Below are positions 27,260 through 48,522 of a stretch of 64,000 nucleotides of DNA, piece by piece; the first letter of the stretch is position 1; each line of letters starts with the position of its first letter. The position numbers and the translations under genes are program-made. The stretch is taken from positions 4,365-68,364 of the forward strand of contig JAEWZB010000121.1 in assembly GCA_023395515.1 (NCBI GenBank), in the 5' to 3' direction. The notes below the pieces were generated by a model. It ran no database searches. It was not told where the DNA came from and saw only the letters and a program-made list of their open reading frames with translations. This DNA comes from Bacillota bacterium. GTDB taxonomy: Bacteria > Bacillota > Syntrophomonadia > Syntrophomonadales > Syntrophomonadaceae.

Positions 27260-27934
27260 GTGGTGATTTTAATAGTAACTTTTATAGTTGCGCTGGCCTT
27301 TCTTCTAATAGTAATAGCAATTTATTATATAATAAAGCAACAAAATATGATGGAATCATTTTCCCGTGAGTTTGCCGATGTGTTAAATGAAGCGGAACAA
27401 TTAAAACAAGATTTAAATATTATGATGGAAAATGCTCTGGATATCTCCCGTTCCTTAGTAGATGATCTGGATGCCAAAGTAAATATAGCTCCACCTAGTG
27501 ATGAACAGATAACCGAACTTATGTTGCTGCCTAATGCCGGGGATAGTATTAGGGTTTACGAACTAGCTAAACAATTAGATATTGACAGTCAGGAATTGAT
27601 TAGCCTTTTAGCTAAATGGGGCTATAGATATAATAACCAGATGAATACCTTAGACCTTGACATAGTGGCCAATATAAAAAGATTAGTTCTTGAAAATGGG
27701 CCTCCCCCAGTTGAAATCTTTAGTAGGAAAGAAAAAACCCAGGTTACAATGGTTCCCGAGGATAATGAGGACAATTTCAATCTGGAACAAATAAAAAAAG
27801 CTCATCCTTACTTAGCCGTGGGCATACTGGCTGAACAGGGTTACAGTATTAAAGAAATAGCTAAATTACTGGGACGGGGACAAGGTGAGATAAACTTAAT
27901 ACTAAGCTTATCTAAAAAAACTAAAGTTATATAA
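27260..27934 (+). CDS. membrane-anchored protein with an IF2_N-like segment and a C-terminal HTH-like segment (SwrB position)
   Basis: 224 aa. N-terminal TM helix ILIVTFIVALAFLLIVIAIYYII and a coiled coil. IRVYELAKQLDIDSQELISLLAKWGY resembles the IF-2 N-terminal motif (compare inf[26 protein letters not shown] in this window). The C-terminus is YSIKEIAKLLGRGQGEINLILSL. Confidence 0.5.
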   Translation: MVILIVTFIVALAFLLIVIAIYYIIKQQNMMESFSREFADVLNEAEQLKQDLNIMMENALDISRSLVDDLDAKVNIAPPSDEQITELMLLPNAGDSIRVYELAKQLDIDSQELISLLAKWGYRYNNQMNTLDLDIVANIKRLVLENGPPPVEIFSRKEKTQVTMVPEDNEDNFNLEQIKKAHPYLAVGILAEQGYSIKEIAKLLGRGQGEINLILSLSKKTKVI

Positions 27935-27957
27935 AGCGAATTTAACTAAATTCGCTT
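27934..27957 (+). other. perfect 10-bp hairpin without a U-tract (copy 1 of a duplicated terminator-like stem)
   Basis: AAGCGAATTT - aact - AAATTCGCTT starts in the stop codon of the preceding gene and is followed by CAGAGCG, not by T's. Confidence 0.7.
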
Positions 27958-28081
27958 CAGAGCGTCAAAAAAGCCCAATAGCTGCGTTGTTAAGGTCAGC
28001 CCGTTCAATCGACGTACCTATGTACGCCTCAATCACGGTCTTCCCTTAACGCCTTGCTCTTGAACTTTTTTGCTCGCTCTG
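27958..28081. repeat. ~124-nt GC-rich long imperfect palindrome (candidate MITE or structured RNA)
   Basis: Pairings: CAGAGCG/CGCTCTG, CAAAAAAG/CTTTTTTG, GCGTT/AACGC, CCGT/ACGG, and an apical CGTAC-ctat-GTACG. An internal loop carries TCAATC on both arms. GC is ~50% against AT-rich flanks. Confidence 0.65.
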
Positions 28082-28108
28082 AAAATGCATACTTTTTCAA
28101 TAATCTCC

Positions 28109-28136
28109 AGCGAATTTACTTTAATTCGCTTTTTTT
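28109..28136 (+). terminator. intrinsic terminator (copy 2 of the duplicated stem) ending the fla/che transcription unit
   Basis: AGCGAATT - tacttt - AATTCGCT followed by TTTTTT. The stem is nearly identical to 27934-27957. Confidence 0.75.
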
Positions 28137-28191
28137 ACGTCTTTTGGGGCACAATAATTGATAATACTAAAGGATTCAAAAGCTTAGAATC

Positions 28192-28221
28192 TTGCAAAAC
28201 GTATAGCCGTTATGGTATATT
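28192..28221 (+). promoter_or_regulatory. candidate sigma-A promoter of rpsB-tsf
   Basis: TTGCAA, an 18-nt spacer, then extended -10 TGgTATATT. It lies ~110 nt upstream of the rpsB ATG. Confidence 0.5.
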
Positions 28222-28330
28222 AATTTTTGGTAATTACACACGCTAAGGTGACATTATAAATAGTGCTGAGTATCAGTTTTTATAATGGATGAAGCTAGCG
28301 GAGGAATAAAACTAAAGGAGGTATATAATT

Positions 28331-29029
28331 ATGTCAGTAATTACTATGAAACAACTTCTTGAAGCAGGGGTCCACTTTGGACATCAAACCCGTCGGTGGA
28401 ATCCTAAGATGGCAACTTATATCTATATGGAGAGAAATGGTATTTATATCATTGATCTGCAGCAAACCGTGAAGAAATTCGAAGAAGCTTATGAGTTTGT
28501 AAAAAGTGTAGCTGTGGACGGAAAAGGAGTTCTTTTTGTAGGTACGAAGAAACAAGCTCAGGAAACTATTAAAGAGGAAGCTATCAGGTCTAATATGTAC
28601 TTTGTCAATCAGCGTTGGTTGGGTGGCATGTTAACCAACTATAAGACGATTAGAAAAAGAGTATTAAGGTTAAAACAGCTGGAAAAAATGGAAGCAGAAG
28701 GAGCTTTTGACGTTTTAACCAAAAAAGAAGTGGCAAAACTTATAAATGAGCGGGAAAGACTGGAAAGATTTTTAGGCGGTATTAAGGATATGGAAAAACT
28801 GCCCGGAGCTATTTTTGTAGTTGATCCCAGAAAAGAAAGAATTGCAGTAGCTGAAGCCAGAAAACTAAATATTCCTGTAGTAGCTATTGTTGATACTAAC
28901 TGTGATCCTGATGAAGTAGATTATGTTATCCCCGGTAATGATGATGCTATCAGAGCAGTAAAGCTTATAACTGGAAAAATGGCAGATGCTGTTCTGGAAG
29001 GCAGGCAAGGAGAACAAGTTACTGCTTAA
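28331..29029 (+). CDS. rpsB: 30S ribosomal protein S2
   Basis: 232 aa with [29 protein letters not shown] lies upstream. Confidence 0.97.
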
Positions 29030-45508: not shown

Positions 45509-45865
45509 GTGTGTGATAAGTTGAGAAAACTATATAGTATGTTAGGGTTTGCTCAAAAAGCAGGTAAGGTTTCCGCCGGTACTTTAGCGGCTAAATCAAG
45601 TTTAATAAGGCGTAAAGCTTATCTGCTCCTAATGAGTAATGATATAGCGGATAATTCTAAAGAAATGTTGATTAATATTTGCCAGAAAGTTAATATACCA
45701 TGGGTTATACTGGGGAATAAATATGATTTGGGTACTAGTGTAGGGAAGGCTTACCGGGTGGCGGTAACCATTAATGATAACAAAATGGCGGCAGCTCTTT
45801 TGGATGCTATTAACAGGACGGAAGAAAAAATAGAAACTATGGGGGTGGTTGAATGGCCAAAATAA
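45509..45865 (+). CDS. ylxQ: L7Ae/YlxQ family RNA-binding protein
   Basis: [13 protein letters not shown]... It lies between ylxR and infB. The start is probably an internal TTG or ATG (45521-45539). Confidence 0.8.
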
Positions 45866-48522
45866 GAGTACATGAATTAGCAAAAGAACTGGGAATACAA
45901 AGTAGAGAAATGGTGAATGTTTTGCATGGTTTAGGACTAGATGTCAAAAACCATATGAGTACTATGGAAGAATCACAGGTAAGTTGGGTTAAAAAGCAAC
46001 TTGCTAATTCTAAAATGGAAGAAAACAAAGTCCCTAAATCTGATAAACCCAAGCAACCGATTGACAATCGGCCTTCCGTAGATCAAGGAAGACAACCCCA
46101 CCATCGGGAAAGAAATCAGAATTTTTCCGATCCGTCCAAACCTCCTGTAGATAGAAATAACCGAGCTTCCAGCCCAGATAGAGCCGATAGGCCACAAAAT
46201 TCAGGTAATAGGCCACCACAAAGCCCGAACCGACCTGCTAATAGGCCCCAAAGTCCAGATAGACCTGGTGATAGGGCTCAAGGCCCGGATAGAAGGCCTC
46301 CAAGCCAGGATAGGCCTGGTAACAGGCCCCCAAGCTCAGATAGAACTGGTAACAGGCCGCCAAGCCCGGACCGACCCGGTAACAGGCCGCCAAGTTCAGA
46401 TAGAACTGGTAACAGGCCGCCCAGCCCAAATGATAATAGGGGCTCCAATAACCATAGGCCCACTAATGTTAATAGAAACCAAGATGCCGGCCGACCTAAT
46501 ACTAATAAGCCTGCTTCGGCAGGAATGAATAATCATAGGCCTAAAGATAGCAACTTCCGTCCTCCTAATGCAAGGACACCAGTTGCAAATTCAGCCGCGC
46601 CAACTAGTGATAAAGAAAATCTTAAGGCTTCAGATGTTACTAGAGGTGCCAAACCTAATAAACCTAATAATAAAACTAAAAAAACCCCGGACAAGAGTTT
46701 TCCTAAAAAAGACTATAGCCGTCAGGTAAGAAAACCGAAGCATAAACGCAAAAAAGAAGAAGTTATAGAAAAGACCCCCGATTTAATCGCTATTGAAGAT
46801 AGCATTACCGTAAGAGAATTTGCGGAAATGCTGGGTAAAAGCGCGGCCGAGATAGTGAAAAAATTAATGGAATTAGGTACTTTAGCTACCGTTAATCAAG
46901 ACATAGACTTTGAGACTGCCGAAATATTGGCTAGTTTGTATGAAGTCAAAGTAGAACGGGCCATATCGGAAGAAGAAAAACTCTTAGAAGAAATCATAGA
47001 TGATGATAAATCGATGGAACTAAGACCACCTATAGTTACAGTTATGGGTCATGTTGACCATGGTAAAACTTCCTTATTGGATAAAATCAGAAGTGCTGAT
47101 GTAGTCTCCGGTGAAGCGGGGGGAATTACCCAACATATAGGTGCTTATCAAGTAACGGTAAAAGGTAATAAGATAACCTTTATAGATACTCCCGGTCACG
47201 AAGCTTTTACGGCTATGAGAGCCAGGGGAGCCAACCTTACCGATATTGTAATATTAGTAATCGCTGCTGACGACGGGGTTATGCCTCAAACCGTAGAAGC
47301 GATTAACCATATTAAGGCAGCGGGAGTACCGTTTTTAGTAGCAGTTAATAAGGTGGATAAGCCCACTGCTAATCCGGACAAAGTTATGCAGCAATTGACT
47401 GAATATGGCATTGTACCGGAAGAATGGGGCGGAGATATTATTTTTGTTCCGGTTTCGGCTAAAACGGGAGATAATATAGATACTTTACTGGAAATGGTTC
47501 TATTAGTGGCAGAACTTAACGAAATTAAAGCTAATTCTAACCGGGCTGCAGAAGGAGTAGTTATTGAAGCGGAACTGGATAAAGGCCGCGGACCGGTGGC
47601 AACCGTCTTGGTATTAAAAGGAACCTTAAAAGTAGGCGACTTTTTAATCTGCGGTAGCAGCTTATGTAAAGTTAGAGCCATGAGTGATTATAGAGGCAGA
47701 AGAGTTGATAATGCTTTGCCTTCCATGCCCATAGAAATAATGGGCTGGTCAGATGTACCGGAAGCCGGAGGTAAAGTTCAAGCTTGTGATGAAAAAATAG
47801 CTAAGGAAGTATTGAGCTTAAGAGCCAGTGAAAGAAAGCTGGAAGAACAAAAGAGCAGCAGTAAAGTTTCTCTGGATGATTTCTTTAAACAAATGCAAGA
47901 TGCAGGAGTTAAAGAATTAAACTTAATCATAAAAGGTGATGTGCAAGGATCTATTGAAGCCTTAGCTCAATCTTTATTACGTTTATCCACTGATGAAGTT
48001 AAAGTAAATGTAATTCATTCGGCGGTAGGTGCTGTAACCGAAACCGATGTCATGCTGGCCACTGCTTCTAATGCAATAATCATTGGATTTAATGTAAGAC
48101 CAGATGTTAATGCCCGTAAAAGTGCGGAACAGGAAAATATTGATGTTCGTCTCTACCGGGTTATTTACGAAGCGATTGATGATGTTAAAAAAGCGATGGT
48201 TGGACTTCTAGATCCCGAATATAAGGAGAAATATATCGGCCGAGCCGAAGTTAGGGCTACCTTTAAAGTGCCCAATGCCGGCACTATAGCAGGCTCTTAT
48301 ATTATTGATGGAAAAATGCAAAGAAATGCCAATATTCGGGTTTTAAGAGATGGAGTTATCATTTACGAAGGTAACTTATCCTCCTTAAAGAGATTTAAAG
48401 ACGATGTTAAAGAAGTACAGGAAAATTATGAATGTGGTATAGGTATAAAGGATTTTAATGATCTTAAAGATGGAGATGTTATTGAAGCCTTTACCATGGA
48501 GGAAATTCCTAGAGAACTATAA
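45853..48522 (+). CDS. infB: translation initiation factor IF-2
   Basis: 889 aa with the IF2_N motif [11 protein letters not shown] and G-domain motifs [14 protein letters not shown] and NKVD. There is a long P/R/N/D-rich repeat region. Confidence 0.97.
46150..46435 (+). repeat. in-frame tandem repeat (30-nt unit, nested 60-nt unit) encoding DR(P/T)GNRPPS(S/P) decapeptides in the IF-2 linker
   Basis: 46321-46380 and 46381-46440 are near-identical over ~46 nt (aacaggccSccaagYtcagatagaactggtaacaggccgcc). The peptide reads [40 protein letters not shown], preceded by more degenerate units. Confidence 0.85.

Follow-up and report, generated by a model that had tools for sequence, protein, structure and literature searches.

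The spacer between the last gene of a fla/che cluster and rpsB, in the 64,000-nt stretch of Bacillota (Syntrophomonadaceae) DNA analysed here (hereafter the window), raises the question of why one gene should be followed by two near-identical hairpins in the same orientation, with a GC-richer palindrome between them. A preliminary description of the sequence offered three readings: a small non-autonomous element that had entered an intrinsic terminator, duplicating the stem, an IS200/IS605-derived palindrome-associated element, and a structured 3'-UTR or independent small RNA ending at the second hairpin. Our comparative sequence analyses strongly favor a version of the first, in which positions 27958-28108 are very probably a non-autonomous transposon (MITE) with IS1182-family ends that inserted into the fla/che terminator with duplication of the whole hairpin, an IS1182-type transposase acting in trans. 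The features on which this reading is built are as follows.

27260-27934, + strand: the final fla/che gene, 224 aa, taken from the list of open reading frames; its terminator is the insertion target.
27935-27957, no strand assigned: hairpin 1, AGCGAATTTAACTAAATTCGCTT, the left copy of the target-site duplication, with its T-run lost.
27958-28108, + strand: the 151-nt element (MITE), present in many copies and missing at the corresponding site of the five congeners.
27958-27973, + strand: left terminal inverted repeat (IRL), CAGAGCGTCAAAAAAG, identical at 8 places in the genome.
28005-28034, + strand: conserved apical module, TCAATC-GACGTAC-ctat-GTACGCC-TCAATC, a 6x6 internal loop with an apical stem-loop, delimited by alignment and contig matches.
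28065-28081, + strand: inner complement of the IRL, CTTTTTTGCTCGCTCTG, which closes the long hairpin, placed by folds and the copy listing.
28091-28108, + strand: outer right inverted repeat (IRR), ACTTTTTCAATAATCTCC, degenerate here; the duplicated hairpins of other copies begin directly after it.
28109-28136, + strand: hairpin 2 (28109-28131), the right copy of the target-site duplication, with the original T-run, found by terminator scan and fold.
28192-28221, + strand: rpsB promoter-like site, TTGCAA-18-TATATT, found by motif scan; the block around it is conserved in 5/5 congeners.

The arrangement of the two hairpins is as the preliminary description had it. The 224-aa gene ends with a TAA stop at 27932-27934, and hairpin 1 follows directly 3' of it with the structure AGCGAATTT-aact-AAATTCGCT(T) (-7.7 kcal/mol when folded as DNA), passing straight into CAGAGCG without a T-run. 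Hairpin 2, AGCGAATT-tacttt-AATTCGCT(T), is identical to hairpin 1 at 20/23 positions, all three differences lying in the loop, and continues into a T7 run that reaches 28136. It was the sole terminator-like call of a consensus scan of 27700-28400, and with an 8-bp GC-containing stem, the T7 run and a position at a gene 3' end it is the predicted intrinsic terminator, and the putative working terminator, of the fla/che operon. The palindrome between the hairpins (27958-28081; GC 0.45-0.48, vs 0.28-0.33 in the flanks) folds as a single long, imperfect hairpin; our fold recovered all of the helices listed earlier and a symmetric internal loop with TCAATC on both arms. Under DNA parameters its free energy is -25.7 kcal/mol on the + strand (z -6.4) and -33.1 kcal/mol on the - strand (z -8.7); when all 216 nt of the region are folded as RNA, z is -9.2 (+) and -11.0 (-), with 0/200 shuffles as good. 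The sole open reading frame that touches the element is a 58-aa frame that starts inside it and runs into the spacer.

To determine what the site looks like without the palindrome, the region upstream of rpsB was compared in five genomes of the same genus. All five carry a single terminator hairpin after the orthologous last fla gene, followed by the conserved rpsB promoter and leader block, which is the empty site expected of an insertion. At the empty site of the closest congener (rpsB 93% identical) the sequence reads TAA-AGCGAACTTGATTTTATAATCAGTTCGCTTTTT, and in the alignment its TAA-AGCGAACTTGATTTTATAATCAGTTCGCTTTTTAAATG forms the same AGCGAA...TTCGCTT stem as both hairpins of the window. 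As the congeners possess one uninterrupted terminator, the window carries an insertion into that terminator, and the two window hairpins are thus a 23-bp target-site duplication. The insertion leaves the rpsB promoter-like site intact.

The element also recurs elsewhere in the same genome and in related ones. A search of the own-genome assembly (G000; 126 contigs, 3.25 Mb) located it at about 13 places, comprising about 9 full or near-full copies, 2 copies reduced to the ends and 2 solo left ends. These copies are 76-97% identical to the window copy, and all are intergenic, a few bases from the 3' end of some gene.

Clearest own-genome copies: C24:3875-4025, C58:713-908, C116:46705-46897, C36:32756-33040, C124, C60, C26 and C120.
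Ends-only miniatures: C36:17265 and C95:8344.
Solo left ends: C67 and C104.

Among 41 related genomes, nine carry the element, with at least 21 copies each in six, all belonging to other genera of the family or order; none of the five same-genus genomes in this search carries it. Matching public contigs were titled mainly as Syntrophomonas and Syntrophomonadaceae MAGs, and a plasmid BLAST with the element gave no match.

Comparison of 51 non-redundant full-length copies, drawn from numerous genomes, indicated that the duplication of a hairpin is a habit of the element and not a peculiarity of the fla/che locus. A hairpin of at least 7 bp abuts the IRL in 39/51 copies, vs 1/51 in a control window placed 25 nt further out. 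In 27 of the 51, the left and right flanks match each other above every one of 254 mismatched-pair controls, and the duplications span complete hairpins (18-33 bp) and are in many cases perfect, each locus having its own hairpin. Mismatches between paired hairpins fall mostly in the loop, and at one locus (L191) the two loops are mutual reverse complements. Other copies in G000 have a hairpin on the IRL side only, without visible duplication; therefore, either insertion does not always have the same outcome or the second copy frequently disappears.

These duplications also define the right end of the element. In the 27 copies with a duplication, the duplicated flank typically begins 27 nt past the inner repeat, and thus the element ends at 28108 rather than at 28081; the boundary proposed earlier, which gave an element of about 124 nt, was 27 nt short of the 151-nt insert. 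The additional segment (28082-28108, AAAATGCATACTTTTTCAATAATCTCC) comprises the element's spacer and the degenerate outer IRR, and in another genus the corresponding tail, GGGTATGGGCACTTTTTGACAGTCTG, has the spacer and, after it, a second right inverted repeat. The terminal inverted repeats of the family are accordingly the IRL, CAGAGCGTCAAAAAAG, and an outer IRR with the consensus CAGACTGTCAAAAAG in reverse complement. In some copies, extra 46-nt modules (0-3 per copy) are found between the body and the right end; the idea that such modules elsewhere are type III toxin-antitoxin repeats was ruled out, as the genes downstream of them are mutually unrelated. Overall, the 151-nt element is small (the usual bound being about 600 bp) and non-coding, and it displays dispersed copies, terminal inverted repeats, a target-site duplication and presence/absence polymorphism, as MITEs do.

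A candidate partner resides in the same genome. With two mismatches allowed, the left-end motif also marks the ends of a 1563-bp insertion sequence (IS) at G000:C55 (2-1564) and on C96, whose ends are CAGACTGTCGAAGAA and CAGACTGTCAAAAAAG. The MITE IRL matches the IS IRR (CAGACTGTCAAAAAAG) at 14/16 positions; counted by eye, the left ends of copies from other genera (CAGACCGTCAAAAAA) match the same IS end at 15/16, and the outer IRR of the window copy matches the IS repeat at 10/16. The outer-IRR segment in another genus, CTTTTTGACAGTCTG, is of the IS type, its first 14 positions matching the IS IRR. The 447-aa transposase of this IS contains DUF772, DDE_Tnp_1 and DDE_Tnp_1_6 domains, and its score against NF033551, the NCBIfam model for the IS1182 family transposase, is 416 bits (cut-off 270). 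The G000 contig ends at the IS end, and a public contig (L243) that encodes the identical protein at 1501-2844 contains the whole IS (1417-2979); on its two sides the terminator hairpin of the gene upstream, AAAGCAGATCATTAAGATCTGCTTT, is present as a perfect direct duplication of 25 bp.

The same behavior extends to the relatives of this IS. In metagenome contigs, 53 relatives of the transposase were found, and both ends could be located for 28 of them; the ends are of the CAGACTGTC(G/A)AAAAA type in all 28, and whole-hairpin duplications of 19-27 bp surround 11 of these full-length relatives. The other 17 have different hairpins at their two ends, and the right flank of one (L244) is the left flank of another (L245); these unlike hairpins are most simply explained by chimeric assembly across IS copies. 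The IS therefore resembles the MITE in its termini (CAGAC/G-Y-GTC-R-AARAA), in its insertion into terminator hairpins and in its 19-27 bp whole-hairpin duplication, so that the agreement of ends and the shared target choice and duplication expected of an element dependent on an IS1182-family transposase are both seen. It differs from the MITE in encoding a transposase, in having short subterminal hairpins of its own and in lacking the long palindromic body and the apical module. Among the MITE-bearing genomes, the transposase domain was detected in G000, G010, G011 (a pseudogene) and G033 (fragments). No such transposase was found in the MITE-rich genomes G012, G018, G019 and G026, and the pseudogene is the only one of G011. 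Most of these five MITE-rich genomes are draft MAGs, where repeats drop out, but G011 is a single complete contig.

The palindromic body was further compared across an alignment of 40 diverse copies. The apical module is invariant in all 40, and the stems below it covary, with compensatory changes in 14/23 pairs. As a 30-nt pattern, TCAATC-RACGTAC-loop-GTACGCC-TCAWTC, the module has exact matches in more than 120 contigs; the MAGs that bear it, often with several contigs per MAG, include some labelled Acidobacteriota, Syntrophaceae/Deltaproteobacteria, Christensenellaceae and Bacteroides, and the module stays the same in copies whose MAGs carry the labels Firmicutes, Acidobacteriota, Desulfobacterota and Bacteroidota. 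The apical loop is between 3 and 6 nt long. In 50/51 copies the - strand has the better fold; its internal loop, GAUUGA/GAUUGA, could form the pairs G.A, A.G, U.U, U.U, G.A and A.G and thus a continuous helix. Outside the apex, A.C and G.T mismatches number 132 vs 105 (p = 0.09), a weak skew. The alignment contains a conserved U.G on the + strand, with conserved wobble positions on both strands; together with the weakness of the skew, the U.G counts against a clear preference for one strand.

Several alternative explanations were weighed against an IS1182-dependent MITE. One is that a hairpin-duplicating MITE is moved by another enzyme, the true partner being an autonomous element that also bears the apical module. 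This would be in keeping with the absence of the module from all 28 full-length IS relatives and with the four MITE-rich genomes in which no IS1182-type transposase was detected. Moreover, clustering of the open reading frames around 120 copies revealed no recurrent transposase-like neighbor, and a tblastn search with three IS1182-type transposases matched none of the 120 core-bearing loci, so no full-length module-bearing element was recovered among them. However, the termini match the ends of an IS in the same genome at 14-15/16 positions, the first 14 positions of the outer IRR in another genus agree with the IS IRR, the rare duplication of whole hairpins is produced by the IS as well, and no other candidate enzyme was found; we therefore regard a different enzyme as improbable. 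It is even harder to maintain that the element is primarily a functional structured RNA, that is, a fla/che 3'-UTR element or a small RNA ending at the second terminator, with the repeats being members of a gene family. The very stable fold, the covarying pairs, the better-folded - strand and the conservation of the module with its 3-6 nt loop in MAGs bearing the labels of several phyla would all suit such an RNA, but Rfam 15 gave no match (E up to 1) for the window copy or the copies of other genomes, nor did the module-bearing repeats match any Rfam family. With respect to adjacent genes (5 vs 5 in G000) and to T-runs (10 vs 10), copies occur in both orientations, and across 116 copies no orientation bias was detected with respect to GC skew (42 vs 44) or ORF strand (26 vs 34). 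The wobble positions are conserved on both strands, the flanking hairpins are target duplications that are different at every copy, and the site is empty in the congeners. An RNA identity is thus very unlikely. The 3'-UTR reading of the preliminary description may still describe a side effect of the landing site, but it does not give the identity of the element, because the copies lie in both orientations with respect to neighboring genes.

The two remaining explanations concern the hairpins themselves. IS200/IS605 elements lack terminal inverted repeats and do not generate target duplications. A palindrome-associated element of this type, bounded by its own same-orientation subterminal hairpins, was suggested by the two similar hairpins that flank the window copy, but the copy-to-copy comparison refuted it: the flanking hairpin sequence is different at every copy, and the hairpins are therefore derived from the target and do not belong to the element. 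Terminal inverted repeats and target duplications are both present here, and there is no conserved tetra- or pentanucleotide before the left end, which leaves this reading with scarcely any probability. A local, lineage-specific terminator duplication that happens to enclose a palindrome would account for the window copy itself and for nothing further. It was refuted by the census of copies, in which the palindrome occurs at many unrelated loci and genomes, beside or between different hairpins, and we give it practically no credence. The non-autonomous element that inserts into a terminator and duplicates its stem, as the preliminary description had put it, thus prevails; its multiple copies, the five empty sites, the hairpin duplications in 27/51 copies and the IS with the same duplication all agree with it.

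Elements with comparable habits have been described in other prokaryotes. IS1630 of Mycoplasma fermentans, a member of the IS30 family, reportedly uses as targets, and duplicates, inverted repeats that vary in length and sequence, producing long target duplications. It is similar to the present element in duplicating inverted-repeat targets, while its transposase belongs to a different family and it is autonomous. Close parallels are also IS1272 of staphylococci and its composite TnSha1, which have the same type of DDE transposase (IS1182 family) and likewise use hairpins as targets: they insert into hairpins, often terminators, with no primary-sequence specificity (PMC4923244, PMC5678879), and according to Siguier et al. 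(2015), as cited in PMC4923244, certain IS1182-family members target palindromes. In IS1272 insertions, however, the hairpin is deleted or replaced and no target duplication is left (PMC4923244, PMC5678879), whereas the whole hairpin is duplicated here, and IS1272 is autonomous whereas the MITE carries no gene. [quoted passage not shown] In addition, the approximately 25-bp tandem duplication of the IR-bearing end in IS1272L (PMC5678879) resembles the inner and outer right repeats of the MITE, which are 27 nt apart.

IS1182-derived MITEs are also known from Methanosarcina acetivorans, where elements of 160-169 bp have been assigned to ISMac2 as the partner and have direct repeats of 0-4 bp (PMC3852290). 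They are similar to the present element in being short, non-coding and assigned by their ends to an IS1182-family partner, but they are archaeal and unrelated in sequence, and no hairpin targeting is described in the table of PMC3852290. The pneumococcal BOX and SPRITE repeats are small and intergenic with strong secondary structure, BOX being modular (A-Bn-C) and SPRITE resembling rho-independent terminators (PMC10969869). The modularity of BOX recalls the extra 46-nt modules of the MITE copies. Unlike the MITE, BOX and SPRITE do not duplicate a host terminator, their sequences are unrelated, and BOX has no known partner transposase. The 151-nt element belongs to a kind of mobile element that is already known, and it illustrates cleanly an established habit of transposons.

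These observations suggest the following mechanism of insertion. An IS1182-type DDE transposase acting in trans would join the two ends of the element to the opposite feet of the terminator hairpin, which would be extruded or single-stranded at that moment, and gap repair of the hairpin-wide stagger would copy the entire 23-bp hairpin to both sides. The upstream copy (27935-27957) would thereby lose its T-run, and the downstream copy (28109-28136) would keep it and still terminate the operon. With the T-run preserved in the downstream copy, the operon would retain a terminator and the insertion may have been close to neutral; the fla transcript probably now includes the element in its 3' end. 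That one intact terminator copy remains would make such insertions nearly neutral in general, which may explain how dozens of copies are carried in the small genomes of these anaerobes. As the outer right repeat is degenerate and the two hairpins differ at three loop positions, the window copy is probably old and immobile.

The insertion would account for the odd pair of terminators behind the fla/che cluster and implies that about 150 nt of the fla-rpsB spacer is probably selfish DNA rather than regulatory sequence. It also provides a well-controlled case in which IS1182-type elements appear to recognize the shape of DNA, in the form of terminator hairpins, and to duplicate the entire hairpin; the controls are the five empty sites, the 51 copies set against mismatched flanks, and an autonomous IS that does likewise.

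The apical module is a separate matter. Because none of the 28 full-length IS relatives has it, the MITE did not arise from the IS by simple deletion, and the module is not an IS-end binding site inherited by deletion; something besides the recognition of the ends appears to keep it conserved. The variation of the loop between 3 and 6 nt is easier to reconcile with a hairpin form than with a duplex operator of fixed spacing, and a LexA-box-like reading of CGTAC-N4-GTACG was ruled out by the same variable spacing. One tentative and somewhat doubtful suggestion from these patterns is that the module is a functional unit, serving in hairpin form (ssDNA, cruciform or RNA) as a docking site for a host or transposition factor and so letting the MITEs outcompete the IS. 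If so, it would define a distinct class of 'hairpin-bodied' MITEs, in which the body mimics the hairpin target. The copies are sorted by replichore in one genome only, the complete genome G011, a distribution that would fit recognition of ssDNA at the replication fork if the docking-site suggestion is true.

The apical module, the conserved 30-nt tip of the MITE, shows an orientation bias in G011, a related genome whose complete 3.23-Mb chromosome (C1) carries dnaA at 891190-891672 (-), that is, at 0.89 Mb. In this one complete genome, all 17 of the 17 exact module matches were sorted by replichore: the twelve "+" copies lie between 0.09 and 0.88 Mb or else at 2.83 and 3.08 Mb, and the five "-" copies between 0.93 and 2.10 Mb. 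Once looser BLAST matches were counted, the sorting stood at 19/22. Because the MITE copies in G011 are frequently located between convergent genes, gene strand alone is insufficient to explain this sorting. A comparable orientation bias was absent among 116 copies from other genomes.

The genome of the window, G000, also harbors a second repeat family distinct from the MITE, with five listed units:

C36:33560-33800 (-), second-family unit
C5:33850-34050 (-), second-family unit
C66:48060-48260 (+), second-family unit
C81:10120-10320 (+), second-family unit
C36:30170-30370 (+), second-family unit

Each unit carries a conserved promoter-like block (TATACTATCAGAAAGTATAATAAT...TGATAGTATAAGAAAAAC), continues with one or two 46-nt modules (CAACCTTAATAGCGACCGCAGGGAGCATCGGGAGTGCCTGTAGGT) and is closed by a terminator (GACTTGGC..GCCAAGTTTTTCTAAT); the downstream genes are unrelated, and the units had no match in Rfam. 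The same 46-nt module constitutes the insert found in some MITE copies of G000 (on contigs C58, C116, C36 and C124), and one or two such modules also occur inside a third, larger palindromic repeat of this genome, which is approximately 300 nt long with the ends GAATGTATAAATATT.../...ACATTTATACATTC:

C81:28100-28420 (-), third-repeat copy
C23:27650-27850 (-), third-repeat copy
C44:5060-5260 (+), third-repeat copy

Two unusual MITE arrangements were observed. At L073 in the related genome G010 (C100:1944-2187), two MITEs are joined head to tail, with the CAG of one end common to both. In G000 (C67:12078-12838, -), a solo 22-nt left end adjoining a hairpin breaks off into unrelated DNA, at the far end of which lies a tyrosine-recombinase gene on the opposite strand; an integrative element may have inserted into a MITE copy here.

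In the window, TTGACG within the left terminal repeat, read outward, forms together with TAAATT of hairpin 1 (the left target-duplication copy) a sigma-70-like promoter match at 27939-27968 (-), directed out of the MITE and antisense to the fla gene. The number of such matches in the region was no higher than in shuffles.

Also in the window, the rpsB leader (28222-28330; conserved block ...TGGTATATTAATTTTTGGTAATTACACACGCTA...GATGAAGCTAGCGGAGGAATAAAACT...) is strongly conserved genus-wide and contains an extra SD-like GGAGG upstream of the real SD. It had zero matches in Rfam and could be an S2 autoregulatory leader. Finally, the N-terminal part of IF-2 contains a repeated proline-rich decapeptide (RPPSxDRxGN), encoded by 30-nt tandem repeats at 46213-46443 within infB (45853-48522); this is an ordinary feature.
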